A stretch of 64,000 nucleotides of DNA from an uncultured Phycisphaerales bacterium (lineage in GTDB: Bacteria > Planctomycetota > Phycisphaerae > Tepidisphaerales > Tepidisphaeraceae): NCBI GenBank assembly GCA_963755915.1, contig CAVWLP010000003.1, forward strand, positions 352,001 through 416,000. The letters are read 5' to 3'. Numbering within the stretch: the first letter of the stretch is position 1; every line of letters starts with the position of its first letter. The translations under genes were made by a program, and so were the position numbers. Of this stretch, positions 1-18,391 are shown piece after piece. The notes below the pieces were generated by a model. It ran no database searches, was not told the DNA's origin, and was given only the letters and a program-made list of their open reading frames with translations.

Positions 1-207
1 TATCGTCATATTTCCAGGCTGCAATCAAAATCGACGGGGTCGGGCGCTGGAGGGAAACTCCTTTCCAATCCGGCCTGCGGCGCGATATACTTGCAGACTG
101 ATAGTAAGTAGGGTCCTGGCGGTCTGCATTCGAGGAAATGGGCACCCGGTCCTGATATACTTTCGCCGAATCGAACTCTGGTCTCTAATTGGCGGACGAG
201 GCGCGCA

Positions 208-2402: not shown

Positions 2403-3222
2403 AGCGCACTGGGCCGCAAATTTCGACGGGGGTGATGATAGCGGTTGGGCTGCTGTTTATTGCCCCGCTCTTTGTAATGATCTTCACGTCATTCAAGCCG
2501 GAGTCGGAGGTTTTGAATCCGCAGTCGATTATTCCGAAACACTGGACCACAGAAAATTTCCGGTACGTGCTGAATTATTCGGAAGAAGCGCCGTTTCGCG
2601 CTGGCTGCTGAACAGCATCTTCGTGTCGACGGCGGTGACGCTGGGAGTGCTGGTCTTTTCGTCAATGGCGGCCTATGCGCTCACGCGGCTGAGATTGCGC
2701 GGCGGCGGGAAGATCCTGGGGGCTGTGGTGCTGACGATGATGCTTCCGGCCCAGTTATTTTTGGTGCCGGACTATTTGATTTTGAGCTGGTTTCACTGGC
2801 TCGATACGCCCTGGGCACTGATCGTCCCGGCAACGGCGGGAGGCTTCGGCGTGTTTATGCTCGCCAGCTTTATGCGGGCCATCCCCACTTCAATCGACGA
2901 GGCGGCGGTGATCGACGGCTGTTCGCCGCTGGGGGTTTACCTGCACGTGGTGCTGCCGCTGAGCGCACCCGCGCTGGCGACGCTGGGGATTTTCACGTTC
3001 ATCGGATCCTGGAACGATTTCGTGGCGCCGCTGGTGTTCCTGGATTCGGTGCGGAATTACACGCTGCCGGTGGGGATCGCGCTCTATCAGAATTCATACT
3101 ACACCGAATATGGGCTGACCCTGGCCACAAGCGTTCTGGCAACGATGCCGCTGGTCGTGATGTTCGCGATTTTCCAGCGGCACATCATTGAAAGCATGTC
3201 TTCAACCGGTTTGAAGGAATAG
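2399..3222 (+). CDS. Carbohydrate ABC transporter permease (one frameshift near 2597)
   Basis: TTG at 2399 overlaps the upstream stop; N-part SFKPESEV...WTTENF continues in another frame as WLLNSIFVST...EAAVIDGCS. Confidence 0.85.
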
Positions 3223-3231
3223 AAAGGAAAC

Positions 3232-4725
3232 ATGAATACCAAGCTTCATCTTCACACGGCGTTTCTGGTCGATGACGTTGACCCGCGCGTCTTCGGCGGA
3301 TTTCTCGAGCATTTGGGCAGGGCCGTTTACGAGGGCGTCTACGAGCCCAAGAGCAAGCACGCCGACGAGACCGGCTGCCGCAAGGACGTTCTGGAGGCCC
3401 TGAAGCGTTTGCGATTCACCGCGATGCGATATCCCGGCGGCAATTTCGTCAGCGGATACCACTGGCAGGATGCCGTCGGCCCCCGCAACAAGCGCCCGAA
3501 GGTGCGCGACCTCGCCTGGCAAAGTTTGGAGACAAACGAATTCGGACCGGATGAATTTGTCCCCCTTTCCCGCCGCATGAATTGGACCCCCATGATGGCC
3601 GTCAACCTCGGTACCGGCACGCCCGAAGAAGCCAGAAACTGGCTGGAATATTGCAACCTCGAATCCGGCTCAAAATGGGCCGAAATGCGCATCGCCAACG
3701 GATCCAAACGCCCGCACGACATCAAGCTCTGGTGTCTCGGCAACGAAATGGATGGCCCCTGGCAAATCGGGCACATCCCCGCGGAAACTTATGCAATAAA
3801 CGCCCAGCAGACCGCGCGGATGATGAAGATGGTCGACCCCAGCGTCGAGCTCGTCGTTTGCGGCTCCTGCACGATCGATCTCCCCACATACCTGGAGTGG
3901 GATCGGAAGGTCCTGGAACATTGCAAAAACGATGTGGAATTCATCAGCTTGCACCGTTACGTCGGCAACGAAGCCAACGATACGCCCGATTTTCTGGCGG
4001 TCAGCAACAGCATCGACGATCAGATCGAATCGATGGATTCGGTCTGCAAAGCCGTTCAAAAGACCAAGCGCCTCAAAAAGCGCGTCTATCTGAGTTTCGA
4101 CGAATGGAACATCTGGTATCGCGCCCGCACCGGCCCGCACATGGACGGTCGCGGCAAATTCGCCCCGCATCTGCTGGAAGAGGTGTATAACCTCGAGGAT
4201 GCGCTGGTCGCTGCTGAATTTCTGAACAGCTTCGTTCGTCATGCCGACTCTGTGAAGATCGCGAACATTGCCCAGATCGTGAACGTGATCGCACCGATAC
4301 TCACGCGCGGGGACGAGATGGTGATCCAGACGATTTTTTATCCGATCGAAATGATGACCAAACGCCGGGATGGGAAGGCGATGCGGATTGCGATCGATGG
4401 GCCGGCGTATGATTCGAAAAGCTTTGGACGGGCCAATTACCTCGATGCTTCCGCCATTCAAAACGGGAAACAGATCAGCGTTTTCGCGGTGAATCGCAGC
4501 CTTGAGGAGGCGATGGACCTCGAAGTCCGCCTCGGTGGAGGCCGAATCGAGAAACTCGTAAGCGGCGAGATTATCAGCAGTAATGATCCGAAGGCGAGCA
4601 ATACATTCGAGAACCCCAATCACGTGACGCCGCGGGAATTTAAGGATGCGGTCATCAACTCGGCGGGGGCAACTCTGAAACTGCCGCCGCTTTCGTTTGT
4701 CGCGGCGACGTTTGAAATATCGTGA
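3232..4725 (+). CDS. abfA: Alpha-L-arabinofuranosidase, GH51
   Basis: FLEHLGRAVYEG, RYPGGNFVSGYHW, LGNEMDG (acid/base) and SFDEWN (nucleophile) motifs; SD AAAGGA upstream. Confidence 0.93.
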   Translation: MNTKLHLHTAFLVDDVDPRVFGGFLEHLGRAVYEGVYEPKSKHADETGCRKDVLEALKRLRFTAMRYPGGNFVSGYHWQDAVGPRNKRPKVRDLAWQSLETNEFGPDEFVPLSRRMNWTPMMAVNLGTGTPEEARNWLEYCNLESGSKWAEMRIANGSKRPHDIKLWCLGNEMDGPWQIGHIPAETYAINAQQTARMMKMVDPSVELVVCGSCTIDLPTYLEWDRKVLEHCKNDVEFISLHRYVGNEANDTPDFLAVSNSIDDQIESMDSVCKAVQKTKRLKKRVYLSFDEWNIWYRARTGPHMDGRGKFAPHLLEEVYNLEDALVAAEFLNSFVRHADSVKIANIAQIVNVIAPILTRGDEMVIQTIFYPIEMMTKRRDGKAMRIAIDGPAYDSKSFGRANYLDASAIQNGKQISVFAVNRSLEEAMDLEVRLGGGRIEKLVSGEIISSNDPKASNTFENPNHVTPREFKDAVINSAGATLKLPPLSFVAATFEIS

Positions 4726-4792: not shown

Positions 4793-5635
4793 GTGAAAAA
4801 GCTGCGCTCATACATTCTCGGCAACGCTTCCACCGCGGAATATCAGCGGCTGGATCTCATGTCCAAGATTCTTGATCCGTGGACGAGATCATTGATTGCC
4901 GGACTTGGTTTGCGGGAGGGTTGGCATTGCCTGGAACTGGGGGGCGGCAATGGGAGCATGACGGAGTGGCTGTGCGAAAAGGTCGGGGCGTCGGGAAGCG
5001 TTACCTCGGTGGACATCGAACCGAAGCTTATTGCACTGGTGCCGGCGCAAAACCTTGTGGTTCGGCAGACGGACGTGCGGGTCGCGGATTTGCCGGGAGG
5101 GCCGTTTGACCTCGTGATGTGCCGGGCGATGCTGCACCAGATTTCGGAGCACGCGCAGGGTGTGCTGGGCAAAATGGCGGCGGCAGTGAAACCCGGCGGG
5201 TGGCTGTTTGCGTGCGAGCCGGATTTTAACCTGGCGCGGACCTGTGAGCCCAAAGCGTGGGCGAAGACATGGGATGGAATTTTGAAGTGGGGAAAATCGC
5301 AGGGCGTTGACTGGTTAATCGGCCGCAGGCTGCCGGGAATGGTAAAGGCGCTGGGGCTGGGATATCCCGAAGTGGCGACGCACGTGCCGAGCATTCGGGG
5401 GACGACGCGCGATGCGGAATATTTTCAGATGTTTCTGGAGATGGTGCGAAAACGCGTGCTGGAATCGCGGTCGGTGGATGCGAAAACATTCGATGCGGCT
5501 GCCGCGGCGCTGCGGGATCCGGATTGCTGGACGCAGTGCTGGATGCTGACCGGCGTTTGGGTGCGCAAGCCGTGGTTTGAACGCGATCAATCAGAGCAGC
5601 GGGTCGTTGATCTTGCGCTTCATCAGCAGGTTTGA
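4793..5635 (+). CDS. Class I SAM-dependent methyltransferase
   Basis: LELGGGNG motif I, VDIEP, FDLVMCRAMLH and KPGGWL motifs; GTG at 4793; 3' end overlaps the convergent gene by 45 bp. Confidence 0.85.
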   Translation: MKKLRSYILGNASTAEYQRLDLMSKILDPWTRSLIAGLGLREGWHCLELGGGNGSMTEWLCEKVGASGSVTSVDIEPKLIALVPAQNLVVRQTDVRVADLPGGPFDLVMCRAMLHQISEHAQGVLGKMAAAVKPGGWLFACEPDFNLARTCEPKAWAKTWDGILKWGKSQGVDWLIGRRLPGMVKALGLGYPEVATHVPSIRGTTRDAEYFQMFLEMVRKRVLESRSVDAKTFDAAAAALRDPDCWTQCWMLTGVWVRKPWFERDQSEQRVVDLALHQQV

Positions 5636-6163
5636 GGGGAGGCTCGTGGGGTCCAGCGCTTTGCGGGCGGTTTCCACGCCGGCGACCGGGAGATTTTTGG
5701 GGTCGAGCAATCCGAGTTGAACAAGCGCCGAGGCCTGGTCCCAGTGGATGTGCTCGTGATGAATTTTTCCGCCTTCGAAGGCGACGACCACGATCGTGAC
5801 CAATTCGATCCTCCGGCCGGTCGGCGGCACACCGGGAAGCAGCCAGTCCATTTGCTTGGTGTGGGTGCAGCGGAAGACGAATTCATCGACGATGCGGTCG
5901 TAGCCGACGGTCCGCGAGATGGGGAGGAGTTCGACATCGGGCGGCATCGAGGGAATGAAATACGTGCCGTAAAAGTGCTCGAGCTGGGTGCGACCAACGC
6001 CGCCGGTCAGCACCGGCACGTGGTTGACATAGGGGCGGGCGACCATGGTATCGCAGGAAGCGGCGGCATTTTTGTCCTGGAATTCCGCGGCCAGATGCTT
6101 TTCCCACAGATCGACCATCGCCAGTTGATCGGGCGTGAGCTTTGAAAGGTCGAGGGCGAACAT
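5591..6163 (-). CDS. SnoaL/NTF2-like ester cyclase family protein
   Basis: PYVNHVPVLTGGVG, RIVDEF, LPGVPPTGR and EHIHWDQAS motifs. Confidence 0.85.
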   Translation of the reverse strand: MFALDLSKLTPDQLAMVDLWEKHLAAEFQDKNAAASCDTMVARPYVNHVPVLTGGVGRTQLEHFYGTYFIPSMPPDVELLPISRTVGYDRIVDEFVFRCTHTKQMDWLLPGVPPTGRRIELVTIVVVAFEGGKIHHEHIHWDQASALVQLGLLDPKNLPVAGVETARKALDPTSLPSNLLMKRKINDPLL

Positions 6164-6393
6164 GACGACCACCTCCCCAAAAGAAGTAGTTTGTCCGGGG
6201 ACGCCGGGACGCGCGCAGGCATTCTAACACAAGGCGTGCAGTAATCAGTTATCGCTCCCATTTTACGCGGGGAAAATAATTCATTTGCTTCAAAACAGCC
6301 GCTGGGCGCAAAACCTGCCATGGGGCCACAAGTTAAGTGATGTTTCGGGTTCTTCGATAAAGGGCAATATCGGTCTTTTGCCTTAAGCCAGGA

Positions 6394-8012
6394 ATGCCAA
6401 TGGAAAGCAGCAATCAAAGTGTTTCAATCCGCTGGGGACTCGTAGCCGTCCTGCTCGCAGCATCGATTGCGCGCCTGTCGACGCTGAGCGACCCATTTAC
6501 CCGAAACCACGAAAGCACCGCCTGCGGCCCCATGGTCTGCGCCGCCCGAAATATGGTGCGCTACGGATTCTTCGCCTGCCATTTCGGCTACGTTGAAAAC
6601 GCCGATCACGTCGATCCGAGCCAGTTCACTTATTACAACCACCATCCGCCCCTGGTTCCGATACTCGAGGCCCTCAGCGCCAAGGTCTTCGGCGATGTCC
6701 CCTGGGCTTACCGCCTACCCGGCGCTCTCTGCTCCGTGCTCACCAGCGGGCTGCTCTTTGTGATGCTGGCGGCAAGTTTGACTGGCGCGTCGGGCTCGCC
6801 ACGGCGCTGCTTTATACCCTCTGCCCTTTCATCTGGATGTTCGGCGACATGCCCGACGTCGTCGGCCCCCACATGATGCTCTTCGGACTCCTCACCCTGG
6901 AGTGCTATTCACGCTGGTCCGACGAAGGCAACGCAAGGTGGCTCCCCTGGGCCGTTCTCTGCTGGTTTCTGGCCTTTATGTGCGACTGGCCGGCCTTTTT
7001 CCTCGTCCCCATCCTCTGCGCCGATTATGCCATCAAGCATCCCTGGCGCGCCTGGTGGCGGATGATTCCCTACTGCGTGATCGCCGTCCTCGTCCTCGGA
7101 TCGACCATCGGCTGGCTGATGGCCGGTGGCGACAACAGCGTCATCTCCGAAACCATCCGCAGGGTCAACGGCGGCGCCTCCGACGCCGGCCTGAAGATCG
7201 GCCTGGCAAGCTGGTTCCGCGTCGCCATCGGTTATTACGTTTATCACACGTTCACCCTCCCGGTAATTCTGCTCGGCCTGGCCTATATTCCCGCGGTGGT
7301 GTGGATCGTTAAGAAACACCGCTCAGAGTTGGCGGCCAATGATACAACGCTGATGATGGTCTGCTGGGGACTGATGCACGTTCTGATCGGCTTCCAGAGC
7401 AGCTACCAGCACATGTGGGTCTGGTGCGTCCTGGTGCCGGGCGCCTGCGCCGCCGCCGTCCTGGGCGGACGGGCCATCTGGAATATTCTCCCCGCCAAAA
7501 TTCAGACCAGTTCCTACGTGCCCTTTACCGCCGGAGCGCTGGCGGTTGTCTTCATCGTCTCCTGTTGCCTGGAGGCCAAAACCCTCAGCAATCTCGGCCT
7601 GCCTGTCGAGGAAAACAGCTATACAATGAAGGACATGGGCGAGGTGATTCAGCAGACCGTGCCCCCTGGCCAGGGAGTTTTGACCAGCGATATGAGCGAC
7701 CCCCTGACGCATCAAAGCGAGCCGGCCCTGTGGTTCTACTCCGACCGCCAGCTTCGCAACGGCATTCGCAGCGTCAGCCAGCTTGATAATTCACTGGGTG
7801 AGGGGGACTACCAGCTCTTCTACGATTTCGTGCAGCCCGGCGGCCCGGCGCCTTTGTGGTTCATCATGCCGCTGGAGCATCACGAGCGATTCAAGCAACT
7901 GGCGGCCGCGCTCGACAGCCGATACGCCCGCTGGCAGAAAAACGGGTTCTTCATCTACTACCTCCCGGAGACCCCCGCCGACGTAGGCAAGGTCGCCGAT
8001 ACCGGCAGGTAG
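6394..8012 (+). CDS. GT-C fold membrane glycosyltransferase (ArnT/PMT_2-like), frameshift near 6770
   Basis: YNHHPPL and AYRLPGAL motifs in the first ORF; frame switches to GKFDWRVGLATALLYTLCPF and a polytopic membrane ORF ending at 8012. Confidence 0.72.
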
Positions 8013-8025
8013 ACTTCCACCACTT

Positions 8026-8835
8026 TTAGTTTGCGTCGGCCCCCGCCGACGCACCCACAAGCTTGCCCACCGGTGCAGCAGTCTTGCGTGGCTCATGCCA
8101 GAGCCGCCAGCGAAGGCGGATCGTGTCGAGGATCATGGACCAGCCGTGCTTCACCATGCGGACCGTGGTCGGGTCTACATATTCGAAATGGATCGGCGTC
8201 TCCTTGATCGTGAGATTGGCGGCGCCGGCGTAGGCGAGGAGCTCTACGTCGAAGAAGAAGCCGTCGGTTACGATGTGTGCGCCGATTCGATCCCACGTTT
8301 TGGCGGTGAAGCCTTTCAGGCCGGCCTGGGTGTCGAGGATTTTTATGGGCAGCATCCAGCGCAGGAAGGCGTTGAAGGCGCGGCTCATGCGGTGACGCTT
8401 GTAGATGTTAGGGAAATCGAGGGGGCTGATCAGGAACCGCGAATCGGGGTGGGCGCGGTTGACGACGACCATGTCGGCCCCTTCGCGCAATTTCGCCAGG
8501 ACCTTGACCGCTTCCTCGGGGGCATACGCCAGATCGGCATCGGTGAAGATCCGATACGGCGTCTGCGCCCGCCACATGCCGTTCTTCACCGCGAATCCCT
8601 TGCCGCGGTTCTTGGTATAGCTCTGCACCGTCATCCGCGGCTCATTGCGCGTAAGCATCTCGAGCTTCGCCGAGGTATCGTCCGTGCACCCGTCGCAGAC
8701 GAACAGAACGCAGAATTCGGGATTCACCGCAAGAAAGGCGCTGAGCCTTTCCACCGATTTGGCGATGAACGCCGACGCGTTATAGGTCGGAATGACCAGT
8801 GTGCAGATAGGATTGGTCCCAATTTGAGCATTCAT
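8026..8835 (-). CDS. GT2 polyprenyl/dolichyl-phosphate glycosyltransferase-like
   Basis: VIPTYN, DGCTD, NRGKGFAV, FTDADL, DTQAGLKGF and GFFFDVELL motifs. Confidence 0.88.
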   Translation of the reverse strand: MNAQIGTNPICTLVIPTYNASAFIAKSVERLSAFLAVNPEFCVLFVCDGCTDDTSAKLEMLTRNEPRMTVQSYTKNRGKGFAVKNGMWRAQTPYRIFTDADLAYAPEEAVKVLAKLREGADMVVVNRAHPDSRFLISPLDFPNIYKRHRMSRAFNAFLRWMLPIKILDTQAGLKGFTAKTWDRIGAHIVTDGFFFDVELLAYAGAANLTIKETPIHFEYVDPTTVRMVKHGWSMILDTIRLRWRLWHEPRKTAAPVGKLVGASAGADAN

Positions 8836-8897
8836 ATTTCTCCCGGTCCGTTTTTAGTTCTTGCCAGTTTGTTATCGGTCCAAGCGCATAAATCCTG

Positions 8898-10535
8898 TTA
8901 AAACCTGTAAGTGAGCCCCGCGGAGAGCCCGTTGCCGGAATAGGGCACAGACGATCCGGGGAGGTAGTAGTACGTATACGACACCGACAGTTGGAGACGA
9001 TTCCCAATGTGCAGCGTGGGCCCGATCGACAGCTCCACGCCGAAGTCGGCGGGGCTCAGGATGTACAGGGGATAGACATACATCGGTAGCGTAAGCCCGG
9101 GCACGATCTGCGGCTCGGCACGCAAAATCGGACCGACGGTTTGGAAATCCGCCCGGCTGCTGTAGGCGGTGTTTTGCCCATACTGGGTCATTTCGTAAGC
9201 GCCGCCGAGGCGGATATTCCAGGTGTAATTGAGGACGTAATAGGGTTCGACGTGGAGGAACTGGCGGCTATTGCCGTCGTTGTATTCGGCGTAGGTGTAG
9301 ACGACGTTGGCGGCGATGTAATCGGTGAACTGGTAGCCACCACTGACGCCGGCGACGTCCTGCGAGAGGTCGTTGGCGACTGTGTACATCGTGTCGTTAA
9401 CCGGGTCGTTGAGGCGATACGTTCCGTCGAGCCAGAGCTTATCGGTGGGCTTCCAGGTAGCGCCGACGTTGAAGCCGGTGACTTGACGCCCGGGCTGCTG
9501 GAAGGCGTCAACGCCGCCGCGGAAATTCCATTCGCTGTTGACGTGATATTCGAGGCCTAGGTCCTCCTGGTAGCGGATCACGGGGCCAAAGCTCATCTTG
9601 TTGTTGGCGAAGTAATTGTTGTTGTATTCCGCGTCGATGGCGATGTGATCCGACACCGGAACGGTCAGGGTATTGAACCATCCCATCTGGTGGAACCCAT
9701 CGCTGCCGAAGAAGAGGTAATAGTCGCTGGAAAACTGCACGGCCGTATTGGTTTCGATATTCGAAAGCCCTGTCTTGGCCGTTTCGAATGTCGGGTCAAA
9801 CTCCATCGCCTTGGCGTATTCCTGCCGAGCTTCGGACAGATCCCAGTTGTTCCGGTGAATATCCCCCAGCAGGCCCAGGGCATCGACCGACTTGGGATTC
9901 TTGGCCAGCACCGCCTTGGCAATCTTTTCCGCCTCCGCATCGCGCCCATGGGCGTGCAGGAATTTGGCGTGGGCCAGGAGGATCCATTCCTCATCGACGG
10001 CATTGCGATCAGCCGCTTCGTAGGCTTTTTCGGCGTCCGCGGTCCGGCCCGCGTGATCCAGCGCGGCGCCGAGCTGCGCATAGGTTTCCGCGTCGTTAGG
10101 GTCGTGTCGAATGACTTCGTTGAGAACGTCTATTTCGCGATCGGTCATCCCGGCCGCATCCGCGGCCTTGGCGAGCTCCAGGCCCCAGCTGGTGTCGTTG
10201 GGATCCTGGATGTAGGCCGTGTCGAGATGCACGTAGGCTTTTTGGGGATCGTTCAGTTTGTCCAGATAGATCCAGCCGAGGGTTCGCCGCAGGATGATTT
10301 CATCCGGGCGCGCCGCCAGGGCCTTTTCCATCGCGTCGGCGGCGGCCTGGTAGTCGGCCTTGGTTTTCGTCTGCTCCGCGCGGCTTTCCAGCTCCCACGC
10401 GGAATCCATCAGCGCGTCGGTCTGCTGCTTGGTAAGCGACGGAGTCGTCTGCGCACCCGCGCGGCCGCAAAGCATGGCCAGGGTCGCCAGCGCCAACAGG
10501 ATTCTTGCCGGAGATTTTGGAGAGATGGTTTTCAT
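8898..10535 (-). CDS. Secreted TPR protein with probable C-terminal outer-membrane beta-barrel
   Basis: Signal peptide ending AGA-Q; several TPR repeats; Tyr/Gly-rich alternating beta strands ending GLTYRF. Confidence 0.75.
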   Translation of the reverse strand: MKTISPKSPARILLALATLAMLCGRAGAQTTPSLTKQQTDALMDSAWELESRAEQTKTKADYQAAADAMEKALAARPDEIILRRTLGWIYLDKLNDPQKAYVHLDTAYIQDPNDTSWGLELAKAADAAGMTDREIDVLNEVIRHDPNDAETYAQLGAALDHAGRTADAEKAYEAADRNAVDEEWILLAHAKFLHAHGRDAEAEKIAKAVLAKNPKSVDALGLLGDIHRNNWDLSEARQEYAKAMEFDPTFETAKTGLSNIETNTAVQFSSDYYLFFGSDGFHQMGWFNTLTVPVSDHIAIDAEYNNNYFANNKMSFGPVIRYQEDLGLEYHVNSEWNFRGGVDAFQQPGRQVTGFNVGATWKPTDKLWLDGTYRLNDPVNDTMYTVANDLSQDVAGVSGGYQFTDYIAANVVYTYAEYNDGNSRQFLHVEPYYVLNYTWNIRLGGAYEMTQYGQNTAYSSRADFQTVGPILRAEPQIVPGLTLPMYVYPLYILSPADFGVELSIGPTLHIGNRLQLSVSYTYYYLPGSSVPYSGNGLSAGLTYRF

Positions 10536-10536
10536 G

Positions 10537-11904
10537 TTATTGATGGAACTCTCTTGAAAACTCATTTATCGACAAGAACTGCGGTGCGCCGTTTTCAGAG
10601 TCGTGAACGAATATTGGGACGTTGGCCTCATCGATCCCCCTGGTGGCGATAACCTTCAATTGCACCCTGTACCAGCCTGGAACGTCGGGCAGCTCGATCG
10701 CCGCCATCTGGCCGCCCTGCATCGGAGTGATCGTTCCCGCGTCCGGCTTGAAATTCGGACCTGTCACGCTCCAGCGATACTCCACATGATCCAATGGCAA
10801 CGATCGCACGTTCGCCTTGACCACAAACGGCTCACCGGGCCACTGCGCATCGGTCGGATAATTGATTTCCAGGATCTCCGGGCCGGGATTAGTGAAGGCT
10901 CCAAACAGCTTCGGATTCGGATTATGCCAGGCGTCGCGCATCGCGGCGCACACCGGTTTTTCGCGGCCGTCGAGGTCCACCATTCCGAACCAGGTGGCGG
11001 TTCCTTCGTAACGATCGCTCCAGCAATAGGCGATGCCGCCCACGTTGCTCCCCTTATTCGCCTGGATATCCTCGCGCCACCGATCCGCGTAATACCAGCC
11101 CTTCACCGCCGCCGTCGGTTCCAGCAGCCCCTTCTGGCTGTCGTAATGATTGCGGTCGTTGTTCCAGTACCCATCCGGACCAAATTCGCTCACCAGATAC
11201 GGCCGCCCCGGATCGAAGCGGGCGAAAAGCTCGTGAAGGTGCCCAATGTCAGGCTGGTAATACGCATTCACCGCAACCGCATCGAGCGTCGGCGCCCCAA
11301 CCGCGTAGTCGGCAATCGCCCCACCAACCTGGTCAGCCTCCTGCGCGGAGAAGATCGGATGATTAGGATCGAGCTGCCGAATAACCTGCGCCATCCGCTC
11401 CACGAAAAGCACGTGGGCATGCCGAACTTCCGTCAAATACGGCTGCGAATACTTGTGCTTCAGCAGCCCCCAAACTTCGTTGCCCAGGCACCACCCCAGC
11501 AGCCCCGGATGATCGTGATAAGCGAGAACCGTCGATTCAATTTGCGCCTGATATTCCTGCTGTTTGGCCGCATCCGCCAGGTAATTCTCGTCCTGCATGA
11601 ACCAGAACCCGTACATCACCTTGAGATGATTTTCCTGTGCCGCGTTGAGGATATTGCGGTCCGACCAGGTCCGCCCATACCGGCGGATGGTGTTGCCTCC
11701 CATTTCGTGAATGATCGAAAAATCGCGACTAAGCTGGGCCGAGCTCAACGGCACGTTGGCGTCGCGCCAATCCTGCCCCGGATTGTAAGCAATTCCCTTG
11801 ACGTAGAACGGCCTTCCATCCACTAACAGCGAGAAATGCCCCGGCGAACCGCTGATGCAGCGCGACTGATGATGCTGGGGATGCAAATCAAACCACAGCG
11901 GCAA
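10537..11904 (-). CDS. Clan GH-A TIM-barrel glycoside hydrolase (GH2-TIM/GH158-like); probably the C-terminal part of the upstream GT2 gene
   Basis: VDGRPFYVKGIAY, GGNTIRRY, LGNEV and VSEFGP motifs; no signal peptide or SD; overlaps the upstream ORF by 82 bp. Confidence 0.75.
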   Translation of the reverse strand: MPLWFDLHPQHHQSRCISGSPGHFSLLVDGRPFYVKGIAYNPGQDWRDANVPLSSAQLSRDFSIIHEMGGNTIRRYGRTWSDRNILNAAQENHLKVMYGFWFMQDENYLADAAKQQEYQAQIESTVLAYHDHPGLLGWCLGNEVWGLLKHKYSQPYLTEVRHAHVLFVERMAQVIRQLDPNHPIFSAQEADQVGGAIADYAVGAPTLDAVAVNAYYQPDIGHLHELFARFDPGRPYLVSEFGPDGYWNNDRNHYDSQKGLLEPTAAVKGWYYADRWREDIQANKGSNVGGIAYCWSDRYEGTATWFGMVDLDGREKPVCAAMRDAWHNPNPKLFGAFTNPGPEILEINYPTDAQWPGEPFVVKANVRSLPLDHVEYRWSVTGPNFKPDAGTITPMQGGQMAAIELPDVPGWYRVQLKVIATRGIDEANVPIFVHDSENGAPQFLSINEFSREFHQ

Positions 11905-14558
11905 CGATTGCGCTGCGCGTGGCCGGCGCTGAAAGGCTGAAGATTCAGCGTCCGCTTTGTTTCCGACAACCAGGACGAATCGTCGGTCGGCGGCGCAATC
12001 GCATTGTTGTCGTCGAGAACGACGCTCTTGATCTCCGGATAGCGCACGCTGATGTCGGAAAGAGCATCACGCTCCCAATTGGCCCCCAGCTCATTGTTGG
12101 CCGCATTCAGCCCGGTAATCATGATCGGTCGGTGCCACTGGGCAATGCGCGGATGGAAGGCGTCATACTGCTCGGCAAAAGATTTCCTCGGCGAAGCCGG
12201 ATCCTGGGCGATCGGCAGGGCGATCCAGTCGATGAATCCCGCCTGCTCCGGAAAATACGTCGCCGCGGTCTTGGGCGAAGCCGGAGACCAGACCCACCCA
12301 ATATTAGCCGCACCTTCCGTTTGGAGCGTCAGCACCAGGTGCTGCCAGGCGGCGATAAAATCCGCCGGTTTGTTGCCGGTACGGGCAGACCACGGCATTG
12401 CCGCGTTGTCCGGCTGCGGAGCGAAGGAGATAAGAATCGGTTCACCAAACGCCCGCGCCGAGGCCGCAAACTGGTGAATGTACGCGTCATAATTCCCCGC
12501 CCCGATGCGCTGGAGAATCGGATGCCTCTGCCACGAATGCATTGCAGTTCCATCGACGGGCAGCCAATTCAGCATCGGGATCGCCCCGCCGCGGCGGAGC
12601 TCCTTAAGCTGGTCGACCGGCAAATCCGCGCCCCAGGGCAAATCAACGGCCACGATCCGGAACTGGATATCAAACTGCAACTGGAGATTGGCCGTGCTCG
12701 GCAGCCAGGCCTCTTTGCCCGCGCTCAGGTGTACGCCCGTGTAAAAGCCTCCGGTATCCGGCACCAGCGTGTCGTCGAACGCATTTTCCAGACCGTTCCC
12801 CTGCGACGGAACGAGGTTGATGAAATAAATCGCCAATGTTGCCGTCGCGATTCCCAGCGGAAGCAGCCGTCCCTCGCGGAACTGCCGCAGCATCGCCCGA
12901 TACGCCATTCCCGCGCCGCGCCGAACGCTCCGGGCGATCTGGATGACGAATCGCAGCCGCTGAAGCTGCCGGCGAAGTTTCAGCAGCGTTACCTGCTGCG
13001 AAGTGACGGAAATATGTAAAAGCGAAATCGAGTTGAGCACCGCCAAAACCGCCATGAGCAGTGCCGGCGGAGAGCTGTCGTAATAAACCCCGAAGCATGC
13101 CGCGAGGATAAGAACGCCGGCCGCGACGAAGTTGGGCAGCGTGATCCTGCCCGCGTTGGAAGGTTCATCTTCCTTCGGCGTCGGGATATACGGAACCTTG
13201 ATCCGAAACACCGCGCAGAAAACGCCCGCCAGATAAATCCACCAGGTCGCGATCGCCAGCGACCCGCCGGCGATATGCATCCCGCGCTCCTGCGGCTCCA
13301 TGAGCCACCGCTGCACGCGCAGCCGCACCAGCGTCGCGAAAACCAGCATCGGCGCGAACCAGAGCACCAGTTCCGTCGCCGTCGCCCGCCAGGCGATCAG
13401 CCCCACGGTGAGCGTGGCGATCGGCACCAGCATTTCCAGAAGCGTCACCACGCCGCGAAGAAAGAAAATCGGGCACAGCAGGTAGTGAATGCGCTGCCGC
13501 CAGGTAAAGCCGCTGTAAAGTTTTGGATATTCCTGGAAGAGCAAATCGAACACGCCGCACGCCCATTTGATCTGCTGCTTGTAAAACGCCGCCAGCGTCG
13601 AGGGAACCAGTCCGCGGGTGAGAATCTCCGGCACGTAAACCGAGTGCCACCCCTTCGAATAGAGCCGCATCGACGTGTGCATGTCCTCGGCGAGTCCCGG
13701 CGCGTGCCCGCCGATGCTGTCCAGCGCCGTCCGGCGAAAGACGCAGTTTGCGCCGATGGCCTGTGTCGTGCCGCACCCGTTCATCCCCATCATGTAGGGG
13801 CCGTAAAAGTGATACGACTGCTCCGCCGCGCCTCGCGCCACGATCGAATCCGACTGATTCCGATACGCCTGCACCGACTGCACAAACCCAACGGATGGAT
13901 CCTCGAAATATCCCAGCGTCCGCTCCAGCAAATAGGGCGAAGGCTCATGATCTGGATCCAGAACGACGGCGATTTCCCCCGTCGCCTGCCGAAGCGCATT
14001 ATTGATGTTCCCCGCCTTGGCGTTCTTCTTGACGGTGCGCGTCACGTGAACAACGCCCAGCTCCTCGCAGATCGCCTTGAGAATCGGGTCGTTGCCTTCG
14101 TCGCAAAGGTAATTGGTATGCGGATACGGGATCGCCACCATCGCCTTGAGCGTCCGCACGATCATCCCGCGCGGCTCACCCGGGCAGGCGGTCGTCAGGA
14201 TATCGACGGACCATTTCCGCCGCGCCTTCAATACGCGGGGAATCGAAATGTGAAAATAGTTGTACCATTCAAACAGCCAGCAGGCGGCGCGAAGCCCCAG
14301 CGCCAGCGTGAGCCCCAGATAAACGATCGGATCGCCGATCCGGCCCGGACTCAGCAGCCAGGCCATCAGCGAAATCAGCGAACCCGCGGCCAGCAGGATC
14401 AGCACCCGAAGCTTGAGCAGCTCCCGCCGCGGCAGAATCGTCGCGCGGACCGGATGCGCCGGCCACTTGTAGGGCGGCCAGCATTCGACGGCATCAAGTG
14501 CCGAAGCCGGCGACTCCGCCGACTCTGCGTCGACAATCTGGGTGTCCAAGAGACTCAT
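11823..14558 (-). CDS. Cellulose-synthase-like processive GT2 fused to a GH26-like domain
   Basis: KAGNIN, DPDH, VQSVQ, AED and QQIKW motifs; TM region; then PMLNWLP, GNYDAYI, WVWSP and YFP..IDW GH26-type motifs. Confidence 0.88.
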   Translation of the reverse strand: MSLLDTQIVDAESAESPASALDAVECWPPYKWPAHPVRATILPRRELLKLRVLILLAAGSLISLMAWLLSPGRIGDPIVYLGLTLALGLRAACWLFEWYNYFHISIPRVLKARRKWSVDILTTACPGEPRGMIVRTLKAMVAIPYPHTNYLCDEGNDPILKAICEELGVVHVTRTVKKNAKAGNINNALRQATGEIAVVLDPDHEPSPYLLERTLGYFEDPSVGFVQSVQAYRNQSDSIVARGAAEQSYHFYGPYMMGMNGCGTTQAIGANCVFRRTALDSIGGHAPGLAEDMHTSMRLYSKGWHSVYVPEILTRGLVPSTLAAFYKQQIKWACGVFDLLFQEYPKLYSGFTWRQRIHYLLCPIFFLRGVVTLLEMLVPIATLTVGLIAWRATATELVLWFAPMLVFATLVRLRVQRWLMEPQERGMHIAGGSLAIATWWIYLAGVFCAVFRIKVPYIPTPKEDEPSNAGRITLPNFVAAGVLILAACFGVYYDSSPPALLMAVLAVLNSISLLHISVTSQQVTLLKLRRQLQRLRFVIQIARSVRRGAGMAYRAMLRQFREGRLLPLGIATATLAIYFINLVPSQGNGLENAFDDTLVPDTGGFYTGVHLSAGKEAWLPSTANLQLQFDIQFRIVAVDLPWGADLPVDQLKELRRGGAIPMLNWLPVDGTAMHSWQRHPILQRIGAGNYDAYIHQFAASARAFGEPILISFAPQPDNAAMPWSARTGNKPADFIAAWQHLVLTLQTEGAANIGWVWSPASPKTAATYFPEQAGFIDWIALPIAQDPASPRKSFAEQYDAFHPRIAQWHRPIMITGLNAANNELGANWERDALSDISVRYPEIKSVVLDDNNAIAPPTDDSSWLSETKRTLNLQPFSAGHAQRNRCRCGLICIPSIISRAASAVRRGISRC

Positions 14559-14691
14559 GCTTCTCCCATACTCCTCGGGCGATCTTAAGGTCGCCTTCGA
14601 TTGTGCTGTCCAACCCCGGTGCCTTCCGGCACTTATTCGATCGGTTTAATTCACGGATGGATTCAACGCCCGATCCGTAAAGCTGTTCCGT

Positions 14692-16179
14692 TTATGACGG
14701 CGAAAGCCCGAATTCGTTGATGTCTCGATAGACCTGTTGCGGCACAGCCTTCGGTTGCACCGGCGCCGCCGCCCCCAGGAAATATTTCCGATACCGCGCC
14801 TTCGGCAGCGCGTTCACGATAGCCACCATTTGCTTCGCCCCATGGGCCTTCAGCAGCTCCCGGCACTGCCCCGCCGCAGCCAGAGACGCCCGCCGCGCGT
14901 TCATCACCAGCAGCGTCGCCCGGCATCGCGCCGCCAGCGCCAGCGTGTCTGGATTCCCCAGCGCCGGACCCGCGTCGAACATCACGAACCGATACGATCC
15001 CGTCAGTTGCCGGATCACGTCCGACAAAGCGCTGCCCTGAAGCTTCGCCGCCGAAACCGACGACGGCTTTCCGCACGGCAGCAGGTGCAAATTCTGAATG
15101 TGCGTCGGCCGGATGAAATCCGACGCCACCAGCGGATTGTCCAGCCCGTCATAAAAGCCCGGCGAAGGATTATTGTCCCCGAAAATCTTGTGAAGGATCG
15201 GCGAGCGAAAATTCACGTCGATCAGCAAAACGCTTTCCCCCGCCATCGCGATCGTCGTTGCCAGGTTCACCGCGACGGTAGAAGTCCCCTCCCCACGCGA
15301 TGGAGAAGTCACCAGCAGCGAACCCGCCTGCCGGCTCACGTTCGCCCCGAACAGATTCAGCAGCAACGACCGGCACAAAAGCGCCCCTTCGGATGCCGGA
15401 TCGATATAAGCGGCCAGACCCCGCCCCGCCGTCGAGCTTTCTGGAAGAATCGGCAGATGCCCCGCCGTCTGCAATCCCGTCCGCTCAAAAATCTGCGCCG
15501 GTGTGCGTATCCGATCGTGCGAAGAGCCCGCAATCAGTTCGATCAATATCCCCAGAATCACGCCCGCCGCCGCTGCAATTCCCAGCATCTCCCCAAACGA
15601 CGGATTCTCCGGCTGAACGTCCCCGCTGGCCAGCGTGCAATCCGCAACGGCCTTGGGATCGATCAGCAACATACTCATCCCCGTCAACGGATCATTCCTC
15701 GTCGCCGACGCCAGTGACGCCAGCACCGCGTTGATAATCTTCGCCGCCTGGTGCGGATAGGGCGTATGGGCCACGATCTTCAGTTGATCGTCCTGCGTGA
15801 CTGTTTGAATCGTCAGCATGCGCCTCAGCGATTCGACCGTGTTGGACCCCAGTCCCAGAATCGCGAGCTGCGAAAGATCGAGCCGCCGCCCCGCCGCGGC
15901 CAGGACTGCATCAGACCGCGCCGCATCGGCAAGCTGGTCCAGATATTCCGCTGCCGCAACGCCCGATTCCACGTTCTGATCCGTCTGCGAAATGTTCGCA
16001 AACGACAAAACTCCCTGCACCTGGTAGGAGGGCTGGGATGCGTTCATATACGCCAGCATCCCCACCACTGAAATCAGCGTGGTAAAGAGGATACCGAAGC
16101 GTCCGTGAACCACTGCACTCACTAAACGGGATGTCCACGAAGCGCCGCGCGGTGCGCTAGTCTGTCTGCTACCAATCAT
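14692..16179 (-). CDS. Wzc/CpsD-CapB-like polysaccharide co-polymerase with P-loop domain
   Basis: Two TM helices flanking a periplasmic loop, DRIRTP linker, VTSPSRGEGTST, NLA..IA..GESVLLID, NLHLLPCG and VMFDAGP motifs. Confidence 0.85.
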   Translation of the reverse strand: MIGSRQTSAPRGASWTSRLVSAVVHGRFGILFTTLISVVGMLAYMNASQPSYQVQGVLSFANISQTDQNVESGVAAAEYLDQLADAARSDAVLAAAGRRLDLSQLAILGLGSNTVESLRRMLTIQTVTQDDQLKIVAHTPYPHQAAKIINAVLASLASATRNDPLTGMSMLLIDPKAVADCTLASGDVQPENPSFGEMLGIAAAAGVILGILIELIAGSSHDRIRTPAQIFERTGLQTAGHLPILPESSTAGRGLAAYIDPASEGALLCRSLLLNLFGANVSRQAGSLLVTSPSRGEGTSTVAVNLATTIAMAGESVLLIDVNFRSPILHKIFGDNNPSPGFYDGLDNPLVASDFIRPTHIQNLHLLPCGKPSSVSAAKLQGSALSDVIRQLTGSYRFVMFDAGPALGNPDTLALAARCRATLLVMNARRASLAAAGQCRELLKAHGAKQMVAIVNALPKARYRKYFLGAAAPVQPKAVPQQVYRDINEFGLSPS

Positions 16180-16493
16180 AAGTGCCCTTCAATACGGAGA
16201 TGCCCGAATAATCGGTTGTTGCGACCGGAATATAAACGCGCCAAACCCGACCGACCAATGAATCCGACCGATGTGAAGCCCTTGCGACCCCCCCAAATGA
16301 AAAACTCGGAAATCTGTAACGAGGACGCCAGCAAAGAGCCGAAACGAAAGACCCGATAATCCGCCTGGTCCGATAATTCGGCGCGGCCCAACACAGGCAT
16401 TATCGCCCCCAGACCCAAATAATGTTTTTGCCTTGGCCCCAAATTAGGGCGATATTCTCTCGTAATCTCACTGGAGTGTTAGTGAACCTCTCG

Positions 16494-17671
16494 ATGCGGG
16501 GATTCCGCGAATATCTGCTGCTGATCGTCTCGATGCTCGCCCTCTTCTGCGCTGCCCACAATCGTGCGCCGCCGATGGTCTGATCGTCGGCGCCGATGTT
16601 TCCGACTGCGCCTATTTCCAGGGTCTTGGCGCTAAATATATGGATCACAGCCAGCCCGCGGACATCTTCTCCATCCTCAAAACCCACCACATCAATCTCG
16701 TCCGCCTCCGCCTCTTCACCAGCACCAATCAGCAGGCGCAGCAGGCCCCCTATGACAGCATCAACAACATGCTCTACACGCTCCCGCTCGCGGTTCATGC
16801 CGCCCAGGCCGGCTTGCCCTGGATGCTCGACTTCCACTACTCCGATCTCTGGGCTGATGCCAACCACCAGCTCAAACCCGCCGCCTGGAAAGGCCTCACC
16901 TTCTTCCAGCTCGAACAACGCATGTACGAATACAACCGCGATTGCATCCGCACCTTCCGCGAAGCCGGCGCAATGCCCCAATACGTCCAGATCGGCAATG
17001 AAATCACCTCCGGCCTCGTCTGGCCCGACGCCGAAACCGACACCCCGGGCCACTGGAAACGCCTCGGCAGACTCCTTAACGCCGCCATCCGCGGCATCCA
17101 CGACGGCGCCGGCTCACAAAAACCCAAAATCGTCATCCACATCGGCAGCGGCGATCAGTGGGACGTCATCCGCGCCTTTTTCGACCGCCTTCGCGATCAG
17201 CAGGTGGACTTCGACGTGATCGGCCTAAGCTATTTCCCCGACGCCACCAGCAAAATCGAAGATCTTCAATCAGCCATGGCCGGCGCGACAGCACGATATG
17301 CCCGCCCGGTCATGATCGCTGAAACCGCCTTTCCCTGGTCCCAGAATTCCGCCGATGCCGACGCCGGTGAACCCATCCTTGGCCTGACGCCCGGCGCTCA
17401 CGGACAAGCGCAATACGCCGCGATGCTTTGCCAGGCAATGGCAAGTGTCCCCAACCAAATGGGCATCGGAATCGTCTGGTGGGGCGCCGAATATGAAAAC
17501 ATAGGCCGTCTCGATTTGAACGGCTACGACTGCAGCTCACTCTTCGACGGCTCCGGGAATGTTCTCCCCGTGATCGACGTCCTCGGCCGCTTTGCGATAA
17601 AAGGAAACTCGCTCGCCAACAATGCCGTAACCCAAAGTCTGCAAGCATCCGCCAAACATCTCGCTCAATAG
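16494..17671 (+). CDS. Endo-beta-1,4-galactanase, GH53 (frameshift near 16565)
   Basis: Signal peptide from ATG 16494; GADVS motif in the main frame upstream of 16640; DFHYSDLWAD, QIGNEI and IAETAFP motifs. Confidence 0.88.
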
Positions 17672-18391
17672 CCGCCCCTGCTCAGGCGTCAAATCGCGCC
17701 TCCACCGTCCGGGTTGCGCACTCCCAATATGATTATCGTGAAGCAACGTCACGCGATCGCGCCGGTGATTATCGATGCCCACGTCAACCTGCTCCGCCGG
17801 ACGCGAAGCAAGCTGCCCGCAAATCTTCCGGCTGAATTCGATATTCGTCTGCCCATCGATCCACTCGACTATTTTCTGATCGACCGGAACCTCCAGATGC
17901 TCTGCAATCTTTGCAATTTCCCGTGGCGGATCTTTAACCATCTCTTCGTACCGAACAAACAGAGTGCGCTGCGAATCCTGGTAAGACCTCAGCAGGCAAT
18001 CAAAGCTATGCGCCATGCGCCGCACCGAAGCCTCAAACCCGCCGGCCCAGAACACCAGATCGGAAGCCACGCAATCCCGCGGATCGCGATAGGTGCACAC
18101 CGCTTTCACGCGCCCGCTACGAATCGACTGAAGCGCAAAGGGCCCAAGCTCATGCACCTTGATAACCGCCGACCCCGAGCCGAGCGTTGCCTCCATCTGC
18201 AGAAACCGATCCAGCGAATTTTCCCCCAGGCACGCCATCCCGAACGGCTCCCCGCGCCGCTTCGCGCGGATTTGCCCCAGCAAACGGCAGACGTTGTACG
18301 ACCAGGTTGACCCCGAGCGGATAACGCCGTCACAAATAAAAATGGGCGATATCATCGAACAAATTCGATTCGCTTGCGCGGTTGTCTTCAC
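17537..18391 (-). CDS. Sulfotransferase-domain protein
   Basis: GVIRSGSTW (5'-PSB loop), YRDPRD, RYEE and WRRDLTPEQ...LGY motifs. Confidence 0.75.
   Translation of the reverse strand: MKTTAQANRICSMISPIFICDGVIRSGSTWSYNVCRLLGQIRAKRRGEPFGMACLGENSLDRFLQMEATLGSGSAVIKVHELGPFALQSIRSGRVKAVCTYRDPRDCVASDLVFWAGGFEASVRRMAHSFDCLLRSYQDSQRTLFVRYEEMVKDPPREIAKIAEHLEVPVDQKIVEWIDGQTNIEFSRKICGQLASRPAEQVDVGIDNHRRDRVTLLHDNHIGSAQPGRWRRDLTPEQGRLLSEMFGGCLQTLGYGIVGERVSFYRKAAEDVDHGENIPGAVEE

Follow-up and report, generated by a model that had tools for sequence, protein, structure and literature searches.

A candidate synthase-dependent beta-glucan module with a Wzc-like, probably non-phosphorylating component in a Phycisphaerae soil bacterium

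The DNA described here, referred to as the window, is a stretch of 64,000 nucleotides from an uncultured Phycisphaerales bacterium (G000:C3:352001-416000). Its source, G000, is a Phycisphaerae soil metagenome-assembled genome (MAG) of 6.6 Mb in 3 contigs, with an estimated completeness of 81%. Near its start the window carries a compact group of genes with the appearance of an exopolysaccharide system. Three of these genes probably, though far from certainly, encode a synthase-dependent beta-glucan machine, consisting of a synthase fused to its own trimming domain, an outer-membrane barrel exporter, and a Wzc-like protein, here called WzcL, that would serve as a scaffold. The genes are as follows.

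14692-16179, minus strand: WzcL, the Wzc-like gene, 495 aa
10537-14558, minus strand: the synthase as a single gene, ~1,340 aa, read in the window as two open reading frames (ORFs)
11823-14558, minus strand: BcsA-like GT2 ORF, 911 aa, the N-terminal piece of the split synthase gene
10537-11904, minus strand: glycoside-hydrolase (TIM-barrel) ORF, 455 aa, the C-terminal piece of the split synthase gene
8898-10565, minus strand: exporter with tetratricopeptide repeats (TPR) and an outer-membrane protein barrel, 555 aa
8026-8835, minus strand: small GT2, 269 aa
6394-8012, plus strand: PMT_2-type GT-C glycosyltransferase, in two overlapping ORFs, 6394-6876 (160 aa) and 6837-8012 (391 aa)

The initial annotation of this DNA had listed a Wzc-like gene, a GT2 with hydrolase domains, a TPR-barrel gene, a small GT2 and a GT-C transferase, and the ORF listing and family scans recover all six coding regions. 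It had also remarked on missing genes, correctly so: no BcsB, Wza (Poly_export), Wzx or Wzy occurs among the ORFs scanned from 25 to 23523, and no PilZ domain was detected in the 911-aa ORF or in an intact 1349-aa orthologue (Pfam, E ≤ 0.01). The core genes are closely spaced, with 133 nt between WzcL and the synthase, ~0 nt between the synthase and the barrel gene, and 62 nt between the barrel gene and the small GT2. The synthase stop codon lies 1 nt from an in-frame ATG of the exporter gene, or the two genes overlap by 29 nt.

The association of WzcL, synthase and barrel is conserved in other genomes. When full-length orthologues were counted in 61 related genomes (G014 enters only as a non-holder), all three were found in the same five (G000, G001, G006, G011 and G028); canonical Wzc paralogues of ~750 aa are present in all 61. 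Scans of species genomes and metagenomes yielded 161 related loci, and our own profiles located the barrel domain in 10 of these and the WzcL N-terminal domain in seven. Loci whose synthase is at least 50% identical to that of G011 form a clade of 11 (the window, L017, L018, L019, L021, L024 and L102-L106). Within this clade the barrel gene is directly downstream of the synthase gene at all nine readable loci (L103 and L106 end too early), and WzcL is directly upstream at eight of nine (L105 and L106 are unreadable there). The linkage of Wzc-like, synthase and TPR-barrel genes, which the initial annotation had proposed to look for in other genomes, is thus borne out in the close clade. A FastTree phylogeny of the GT2 region, comprising 42 of 158 rows (all rows of this type and a spread of others) and rooted at the midpoint only, places all WzcL-linked synthases in one nine-row clade with a support of 99, with L103 nested inside it and a verrucomicrobial pair as its sister. 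Because the verrucomicrobial loci have the barrel without WzcL and the rest have neither, the barrel is the older partner; WzcL appears to have been recruited later and only once, and to be non-essential to the synthase family as such. Among 401 genomes across the phylum, no full-length relative of the synthase was found at E ≤ 1e-60 except in G000, and the window's own family is apparently missing from that sample.

A Wzc-like gene might instead travel with a Wzy-dependent locus, and this was looked for. No Wza, Wzx or Wzy family member was found among the neighbours of the module in the window, G011, G006, G028, L102 and L104, and the possibility that WzcL is part of a neighbouring Wzy-type cluster was rejected for the WzcL-linked clade. 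L025, L047, L058, L088 and L139 do contain canonical Wzc genes of ~750-800 aa, on the opposite strand at a distance of 2.4-8 kb; these are unrelated to WzcL. In L025, from a Chthoniobacteraceae MAG, the region 1-4156 encodes Wza (Poly_export/SLBB), a Wzc-type P-loop protein and a BBP2-like beta-barrel, a classical Wza/Wzc cluster on the strand opposite to the fused synthase and 6-8 kb upstream of it.

The synthase is composed of three parts, given here in order from its N terminus.

12810-14558, minus strand: BcsA-like processive GT2 and membrane channel region, the N-terminal ~580 residues, assigned by family, PDB, motif and hydropathy matches
11949-12761, minus strand: GH26-like domain, with both catalytic glutamates replaced in the window clade
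10537-11850, minus strand: GH158 catalytic domain with a C-terminal Ig-like domain, assigned by PDB matches and aligned catalytic residues

The first part matches Pfam GT2 families (3.5e-25) and Cellulose_synt (4.9e-8), and a PDB sequence search finds the BcsA structures 5ej1 and 4hg6 as its closest relatives (~2e-42). The NCBIfam CelA model is matched at 1.1e-52 with 179 bits, far under its equivalog cut-off of 699, as against 57 bits for PgaC. Motifs DPDH, (A/S/T)ED and QQxKW are kept in 16 of 16 aligned family members. Hydropathy places two transmembrane (TM) helices ahead of the GT domain, which is itself followed by a BcsA-like TM block, so that family matches, BcsA similarity, motifs and TM layout together describe the inner-membrane processive glycosyltransferase and channel of a synthase-dependent system. 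Where BcsA has its PilZ domain, the window protein has a lysine/arginine-rich loop of ~46 aa followed by one extra TM helix, and the remaining chain is therefore predicted to be periplasmic.

The two domains that follow differ in the state of their active sites. The GH26-like domain matches a domain of CtLic26A ('Endoglucanase H') at 3.3e-8 in a PDB sequence search. When the G011 protein is aligned to CtLic26A, the HE of the lichenase is replaced by PQ and the AEF of the nucleophile position by TGV, and the window and other clade rows are also degenerate. The catalytic pair is lost in four clade rows (G011, G028, P0011 and P0021) of the 16 aligned; six further rows lack one or both residues, five keep HE and AEF, and one more keeps both glutamates. 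Pfam GH26 was matched only in relatives in which the catalytic pair is intact, and by that pair the window clade falls outside GH26; its GH26-like domain is probably a catalytically dead, glycan-binding one. The GH158 domain matches 9oro (5.2e-26) and 6pal (1.4e-25), with its NE acid/base and SEFG nucleophile aligned, and both catalytic glutamates are retained by all 16 aligned family members. Homology together with the clan GH-A acid/base NE and nucleophile glutamate places it in GH158, and these glutamates would also make it the periplasmic hydrolase of the system, at a location predicted from hydropathy. From its sequence, the domain is predicted to be a periplasmic endo-beta-1,3-glucanase or transglycosylase. 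The characterized enzyme BuGH158 (PDB 6PAL) cleaves laminarin, curdlan and lichenin endolytically (PMC7553746).

The fused GT2-GH26-GH158 family is large: at least 585 relatives were confirmed among the first 600 pattern matches in species genomes. It is common in cultured Bacteroidota, including Pontibacter, Hymenobacter, Chitinophaga, Pedobacter, Runella and Mucilaginibacter, and includes members with an intact GH26 catalytic pair as well as shorter forms consisting of the GT2 part only (to ~residue 600) or of GT2 and GH26 (to ~870). In the open-access papers and preprints searched, nothing was found on a GT2-GH26-GH158 fusion.

Known synthase-dependent systems encode an enzyme that cleaves their own product, a hydrolase or a lyase, such as BcsZ, PgaB, PelA and AlgL. 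The Bcs system is described as one such case (PMC8892547). Given these own-polymer enzymes in known systems and the intact GH158 domain of the window synthase, a beta-1,3-linked or mixed beta-1,3/1,4 glucan is the most likely product; on this reading of the domains, the polymer is probably a beta-1,3-containing glucan. A polymer without beta-1,3 glucan, be it cellulose, mannan or another beta-glycan, is the less likely outcome and still a serious one, as the best solved relative of the GT2 is the cellulose synthase BcsA, GH26 is best known for mannanases, and the QQxKW variant of the GT2 motif is uncharacterised. Set against it, GH158 is the one hydrolase domain left catalytically intact, its two solved relatives are themselves of GH158, and the beta-1,3-glucans are the substrates reported for BuGH158; the closest solved GH26 relative is the domain of 'Endoglucanase H', which we take to be a beta-1,3-1,4-glucanase.

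In the window the synthase gene is interrupted at its hydrolase junction, and the GT-C gene is interrupted as well. Both breaks appear to be errors of the consensus.

6771: one-base consensus deletion inside the GT-C gene
11912: one-base consensus deletion at the synthase/GH158 junction

Logan contigs from four soil-metagenome runs of one study, at low depth (2-4), were compared with the window over 6300-16300 and differ from it by exactly two indels: an extra C behind 6771 in every covering contig (runs X1, X3 and X4) and an extra C behind 11912 in every covering contig (runs X1 and X4). These runs may include the source sample, so that their support is not fully independent; it agrees with G001 and with the orthologues. 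G001, with ~95% protein and 92% DNA identity over the locus, is in frame near ~11912 and ~6771, the window being one base short at each, and is itself frameshifted at other places. Synthase and hydrolase form one frame in three intact orthologues of 1349, 1366 and 1321 aa. From the extra C behind 11912 and the single-ORF orthologues it follows that the GT2 and hydrolase ORFs are one gene, and from the extra C behind 6771 and the frame of G001 that the GT-C is one gene; the organism most likely has an intact synthase of ~1,340 aa and an intact GT-C of ~540 aa. Single-nucleotide differences between the window and G001 often adjoin GCGCA/GCGCG-like strings, and the MAG's single-base deletions stand in G+C-rich contexts. 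These may be systematic long-read errors, perhaps at a methylation motif, and other split genes of the window may be similarly broken, for example an ABC permease read as 1251-2402, 1970-2611 and 2623-3222.

The exporter was assigned from its predicted structure. Its AlphaFold2 (AF2) model, with a predicted local distance difference test score (pLDDT) of 87.1 and a predicted TM score (pTM) of 0.75, shows a signal peptide, ~13 TPR helices (46-274) and a 16-strand barrel (277-554), and the chain ends in YRF. The top Foldseek matches are BcsC (9b8a, 4.4e-16; also 6tzk), PelBC (9h80, 7.3e-14) and PgaA (4y25, 5.5e-12), with a TM score to 4y25 of 0.79 normalised to the target and a root-mean-square deviation of 3.5 over 303 columns. 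By sequence, the PgaA porin model is matched by 7 of 9 barrel domains (best 1.9e-7); against solved chains, the barrel-domain profile found nothing meaningful (best 0.043, a capsid fusion) and the whole-exporter profile found TPR proteins only. The exporters of synthase-dependent systems are defined by a TPR domain and an outer-membrane barrel of 16-18 strands (PMC9601211), and the AF2 model and Foldseek matches supply both for the window protein. In its modelled fold it is a member of the BcsC/PelB/PgaA class, in line with the TPR/beta-barrel exporter first proposed.

The exporter also bears on whether the polymer leaves the cell at all. A GT2 joined to a clan GH-A domain in the periplasm has been proposed for the cyclic beta-1,3-glucan synthases of pseudomonads (PMC10237404), the GH158 region is also matched by Pfam GH72, annotated 'glucanosyltransferase' (7.1e-8), and most members of the synthase family, those of Bacteroidota, have no adjacent exporter. 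The window synthase might then make a periplasmic, cyclic or branched beta-glucan by transglycosylation, as for NdvB-type GH17-GT2 proteins, instead of a secreted matrix. We regard this as improbable, since in the window clade the exporter is always present and is predicted to be translationally coupled to the synthase, an arrangement that is sensible only for export, and the solved GH158 enzymes are hydrolases (PMC7553746).

WzcL resembles a short polysaccharide co-polymerase (PCP) of the PCP-2 type, with a first TM helix at ~27-47, a periplasmic alpha/beta domain of ~130-150 aa, a second TM helix at ~195-220, and a C-terminal P-loop domain resembling those of bacterial tyrosine kinases (BY-kinases); both helices are supported by hydropathy. 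Two NCBIfam tyrosine-autokinase models match it at 3.7e-27 and 2e-23 (95 and 83 bits), both under their own cut-offs, and a PDB sequence search finds CapAB at 2.9e-19. The best Foldseek match of its AF2 model (pLDDT 78) is full-length Wzc (7nhr, 8.1e-22, TM score ~0.55-0.6), and the alignments to Wzc extend over 540-630 columns. The Pfam Wzz match is weak (0.0048, 17.6 bits against a cut-off of 25.5), and GNVR is found in none of the 15 WzcL family clusters, as against most canonical matches. These clusters were all recovered at E ≤ 1e-99 and measure 383-525 aa, and the next match, at 7e-30, is to canonical proteins of 700-800 aa; by such sequence comparison the WzcL family is small and sharply separate from canonical Wzc.

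The kinase features of the P-loop domain are largely lost. The Walker A lysine is absent from all 19 WzcL family sequences (14 have R, three T, one S and one C, the window having T); all six canonical proteins of the outgroup have it, as do two canonical paralogues encoded by G000. The arginines that follow the DxD of Walker A' have mostly given way to other residues; the DxD itself is kept in most members, and the Walker B aspartate in all of them. No tyrosine cluster is seen, the last 40 residues of the 19 members containing 0-4 unclustered tyrosines; four have none, two of which are shortened by frameshifts. Because WzcL lacks both the Walker A lysine and the tyrosine cluster and has a degenerate Walker A' arginine, it is most likely phosphorylation-independent, and it is probably a pseudokinase scaffold. 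Scaffold-type BY pseudokinases, EcpK and HfsB, are known from Wzx/Wzy pathways (PMC12004946). The description of WzcL as a Wzc-type co-polymerase in the initial annotation therefore holds for the overall fold, but not for the kinase motifs or for the size of the periplasmic domain, which is short.

In place of the tyrosine cluster, most WzcL members end in a motif Y-x-D-I-x-x-(Y/F)-G (~14692-14800 in the window), which could be a docking peptide. A second Wzc-type paralogue of G000, at C2:696503-697156 in an ORF of canonical length (~767 aa), also has R for the Walker A lysine; loss of this lysine may recur among Phycisphaerae BY-kinase homologues.

The retained P-loop features raise the question of whether WzcL is instead an active nucleotide-dependent switch, an ATPase or atypical kinase with an arginine or threonine P-loop that controls the synthase in the manner of BcsQ. 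E. coli BcsQ, encoded just upstream of bcsA, likewise has T at the Walker A lysine position and nonetheless depends on ATP for secretion (PMC8892547), and the gene order of the module mirrors bcsQ-bcsA-bcsZ-bcsC. Pfam CBP_BcsQ scores above its cut-off on WzcL (29.4 against 21.3 bits), and the Walker B aspartate and most of the DxD motifs have been preserved. By sequence and fold, however, WzcL groups with the BY-kinases: the BcsQ family model TIGR03371 gives 20.3 bits, against a cut-off of 157.85 and the 95 and 83 bits of the autokinase models, which leaves WzcL outside that family, and no BcsQ chain is found among its sequence matches at E ≤ 0.01. The variation of the Walker A position among R, T, S and C also argues against conserved catalysis, and we consider a catalytic switch unlikely.

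Taken together, these features suggest how the predicted non-phosphorylating module may work. The BcsA-type GT2 would polymerise a beta-glucan at the inner membrane and thread the chain through its own channel; the homology to BcsA is clear, and the sugar and linkage are those predicted from the hydrolase domains. In the periplasm the dead GH26-like domain would probably hold the chain, and the GH158 domain would trim, release or remodel it, a job done elsewhere by BcsZ, PgaB, PelA or AlgL. The exporter, with its modelled TPR region and 16-strand barrel, would then convey the chain through the periplasm and out across the outer membrane. WzcL would be a non-phosphorylating membrane scaffold or regulator of the synthase, in the slot filled in other systems by BcsQ/BcsB, Alg44 or PgaD; conserved linkage, co-occurrence and motifs make this its most likely role. 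Finally, the small GT2 and the GT-C may build a sugar donor on polyprenyl phosphate and use it on the periplasmic side, where the sugar could end up as branches of the glucan. The more specific proposal that a Wzc-derived, phosphorylation-independent ring or scaffold has become an integral synthase subunit, replacing BcsB/BcsQ, Alg44 or PgaD and coupling a PilZ-less synthase to a TPR-porin, is tentative, and we would sooner expect it to fail than to hold. The initial annotation had spoken of a 'hybrid' secretion system; WzcL, synthase and barrel do form one conserved module, but WzcL is no canonical co-polymerase or kinase, and the small GT2 and GT-C are linked to the module in three genomes only.

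Several observations weigh against a WzcL-scaffolded beta-1,3-glucan machine. At 151 of the 161 related loci the synthase has neither partner; those in named genomes are almost all from Bacteroidota, the metagenome contigs being unassigned. At the verrucomicrobial loci L026 and L027 the barrel is present without WzcL, which is adjacent at none of three verrucomicrobial loci. Even within the clade, WzcL is missing at L103, where a LuxR-type gene and an unrelated ORF of 509 aa precede the synthase; the possibility that this ORF is a diverged WzcL was rejected (hhalign probability 0.1). The synthase linkage is thus conserved in the close clade, but WzcL is dispensable outside it and at L103. Since the window and L024 (G001) are near-copies, as are L104 and L105, the clade represents ~7 independent lineages, which limits the weight of the counts. 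The GT2 has QQxKW where QxxRW is expected, GH26 is mostly a mannanase family, and the fused hydrolase families are the sole source of the polymer assignment. Synthase-dependent systems are also recognized by a c-di-GMP (cyclic di-GMP) receptor, such as PilZ on BcsA or Alg44, PgaCD or PelD. A PilZ domain and a riboswitch were sought and neither was found (Pfam, E ≤ 0.01; Rfam scan of 5500-17000, nothing at E ≤ 1), the PilZ position holding only the ~46-aa loop; receptors of other kinds are not excluded by these searches. The periplasmic placement of the GH domains is a prediction from hydropathy and from analogy to BcsA, and nucleotides may still bind to a P-loop that has an arginine at the Walker A lysine position. 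A promoter and terminator scan gives the predicted operon no informative backing, with 0 promoter-like sites and 14 terminator-like sites as compared with 10.0 +/- 3.6 in shuffled sequences; none of the terminator-like sites lies within the intergenic gaps of the predicted operon. The reading as a whole is drawn from genes and models.

The small GT2 and the GT-C adjoin this core and are less regular in their occurrence. The small GT2 matches Pfam Glycos_transf_2 (2.6e-18), and its best PDB matches are to enzymes of the polyprenyl-phosphate GT2 type, ArnC (3.6e-7), DPMS (2.5e-6) and GtrB (2e-5); its NCBIfam matches are all far under the cut-offs, and hydropathy indicates no C-terminal TM helices. 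The GT-C is recognized by a Pfam PMT_2 match to its N-terminal fragment (5.2e-7, 30.5 bits against a cut-off of 26.1) and by many TM segments followed by a tail of ~136 aa, the multi-spanning plan of PMT_2 GT-C enzymes; a sequence search found no solved relative. Its gene converges on that of the small GT2, leaving 13 nt between them. Among the related genomes, the locus copy of the small GT2 is present only in G000, G001 and G011, and a paralogue of 51-61% identity is found in 11 others, with second copies in G000 and G001. GT-C orthologues are restricted to the same three genomes, each beside the module, apart from a relative of 30% identity in one genome that lacks the module.

In place of this pair, G006 and L018 carry an O-acyltransferase (Acyl_transf_3) and a right-handed beta-helix protein. 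G011 has both accessory sets, with a DDE_Tnp_1_4 transposase (L014 625-1965) between its small GT2 and GT-C genes. In G000 the orthologue of the beta-helix protein lies ~565 kb away, and there is no acyltransferase orthologue. This varying accessory content indicates that the GT-C/small-GT2 and acyltransferase/beta-helix sets are interchangeable add-ons. The neighbours of the module also differ among G000/G001, G011, G006 and G028, and the transposase and varying neighbours fit a mobile accessory island. A right-handed beta-helix protein is found near the synthase at 16 of 161 loci in three phyla (L017 6870-7892, L018 16907-18148, L021 6839-7864, L026 8542-10917, and 12 Bacteroidota or metagenome loci) and may be a further conserved accessory, for example a glycanase or a lyase or epimerase-like protein.

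Whether the small GT2 and the GT-C act on the polymer is close to an even question. They may instead glycosylate a protein or an envelope lipid and merely adjoin the module, PMT_2 members including enzymes that modify lipid A as well as protein mannosyltransferases. The pair is missing from three of six clade genome loci (G006, L018 and G028, the last as far as readable) and from all four clade metagenome loci searched; in G011 it stands on the other side of the module with the transposase within it, and in the window the GT-C is convergent with the core operon and outside it. Opposed to this are the GT-C orthologues, which are always beside the synthase module and only in genomes that have it (3 of 3, full orthologues being counted), and the locus copy of the small GT2, which is a dedicated paralogue of a commoner gene. 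The lipid-donor decoration pair put forward in the initial annotation is less well supported than the core: the two proteins recall ArnC/DPMS/GtrB and PMT_2 enzymes, and their linkage extends to three genomes only. Nothing was found in the open-access papers and preprints searched on such a pair acting on a synthase-made polymer.

The genes flanking the module are unrelated to it, encoding an ABC sugar transporter, an arabinofuranosidase, a methyltransferase, a SnoaL protein, GH53, a sulfotransferase, a permease and GT41. Three of these that surround the module, a GH53 galactanase (16640-17671), the sulfotransferase (17537-18391) and the arabinofuranosidase (3232-4725), have no evident tie to it.

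As usually taught, polysaccharide export follows one of three separate designs, Wzx/Wzy, ABC transporter or synthase, and PCP/Wzc proteins are assigned to the first two (PMC9601211, PMC12004946). In this small, coherent clade, a Wzc-derived pseudokinase is tied to a BcsA-type synthase and a BcsC/PgaA-type porin, and a search of open-access papers and preprints found nothing on a Wzc/PCP-like subunit dedicated to a BcsA-type synthase. If WzcL is a working subunit, PCP scaffolds can serve synthases, the activation of a synthase without PilZ or BcsB has a candidate answer, and the emerging class of BY pseudokinases gains one more case; as a scaffold, WzcL would form a mechanistic bridge between the two main polysaccharide export architectures. 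Branching of a synthase-made chain by a periplasmic GT-C from a lipid-linked sugar, if it occurs, would be a further first. As the fused synthase is present in cultured species, the polymer is open to experimental testing; a curdlan- or lichenan-like product would be a widespread soil matrix polymer and a possible new source of beta-1,3-glucan.

The Bcs system (bcsQ-bcsA-bcsB-bcsZ-bcsC) is among the closest of the known systems. Both have a BcsA-type GT2 with its channel, a polymer-specific periplasmic hydrolase and a TPR exporter with a 16-strand barrel. Gene order is also shared, the gene immediately before that of the synthase coding in each case for a P-loop protein that has no Walker A lysine. 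The window module differs in having neither PilZ nor BcsB, in a hydrolase that is GH158, not GH8, and forms part of the synthase chain, following a dead GH26-like domain, and in a product that is probably not cellulose; WzcL is membrane-anchored and of BY-kinase/Wzc descent, whereas BcsQ is soluble. With PgaABCD, which makes poly-N-acetylglucosamine, and with PelA-G it shares a short TPR-plus-porin exporter and a periplasmic GH domain for its own polymer, but it has no deacetylase and no PgaD or PelD c-di-GMP receptor, and its GT2 is nearer BcsA than PgaC. NdvB and the 'Orphan' GH17-GT2 proteins resemble the window synthase in combining, in one polypeptide and on either side of a membrane region, a BcsA-like GT2 in the cytoplasm with a glucan-processing clan GH-A domain in the periplasm, with a beta-1,3-glucan as the proposed product (PMC10237404); their domain order is the reverse, the GH domains being C-terminal in the window synthase, and they have GH17 in place of GH26-like and GH158 domains, to which the window adds the outer-membrane exporter and Wzc-like genes. 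The accessory pair recalls ArnC/ArnT, GtrB/GtrC and DPMS/PMT, in which a small GT2 likewise stands beside a multi-TM PMT_2-type GT-C, except that the window GT2 has no C-terminal membrane helices and no flippase gene is nearby. WzcL itself has the overall Wzc fold across its membrane and kinase parts and a two-TM PCP topology, and differs from Wzc in its smaller periplasmic domain, with no GNVR match and Wzz below threshold, and in having a synthase as its partner at a locus without Wza, Wzx or Wzy. In having lost the catalytic features of BY-kinases it resembles the pseudokinases EcpK and HfsB and the phosphorylation-independent PCP-2 subfamily (PMC12004946), with the distinction that the pseudokinase of WzcL is fused to its PCP part instead of being a protein of its own.

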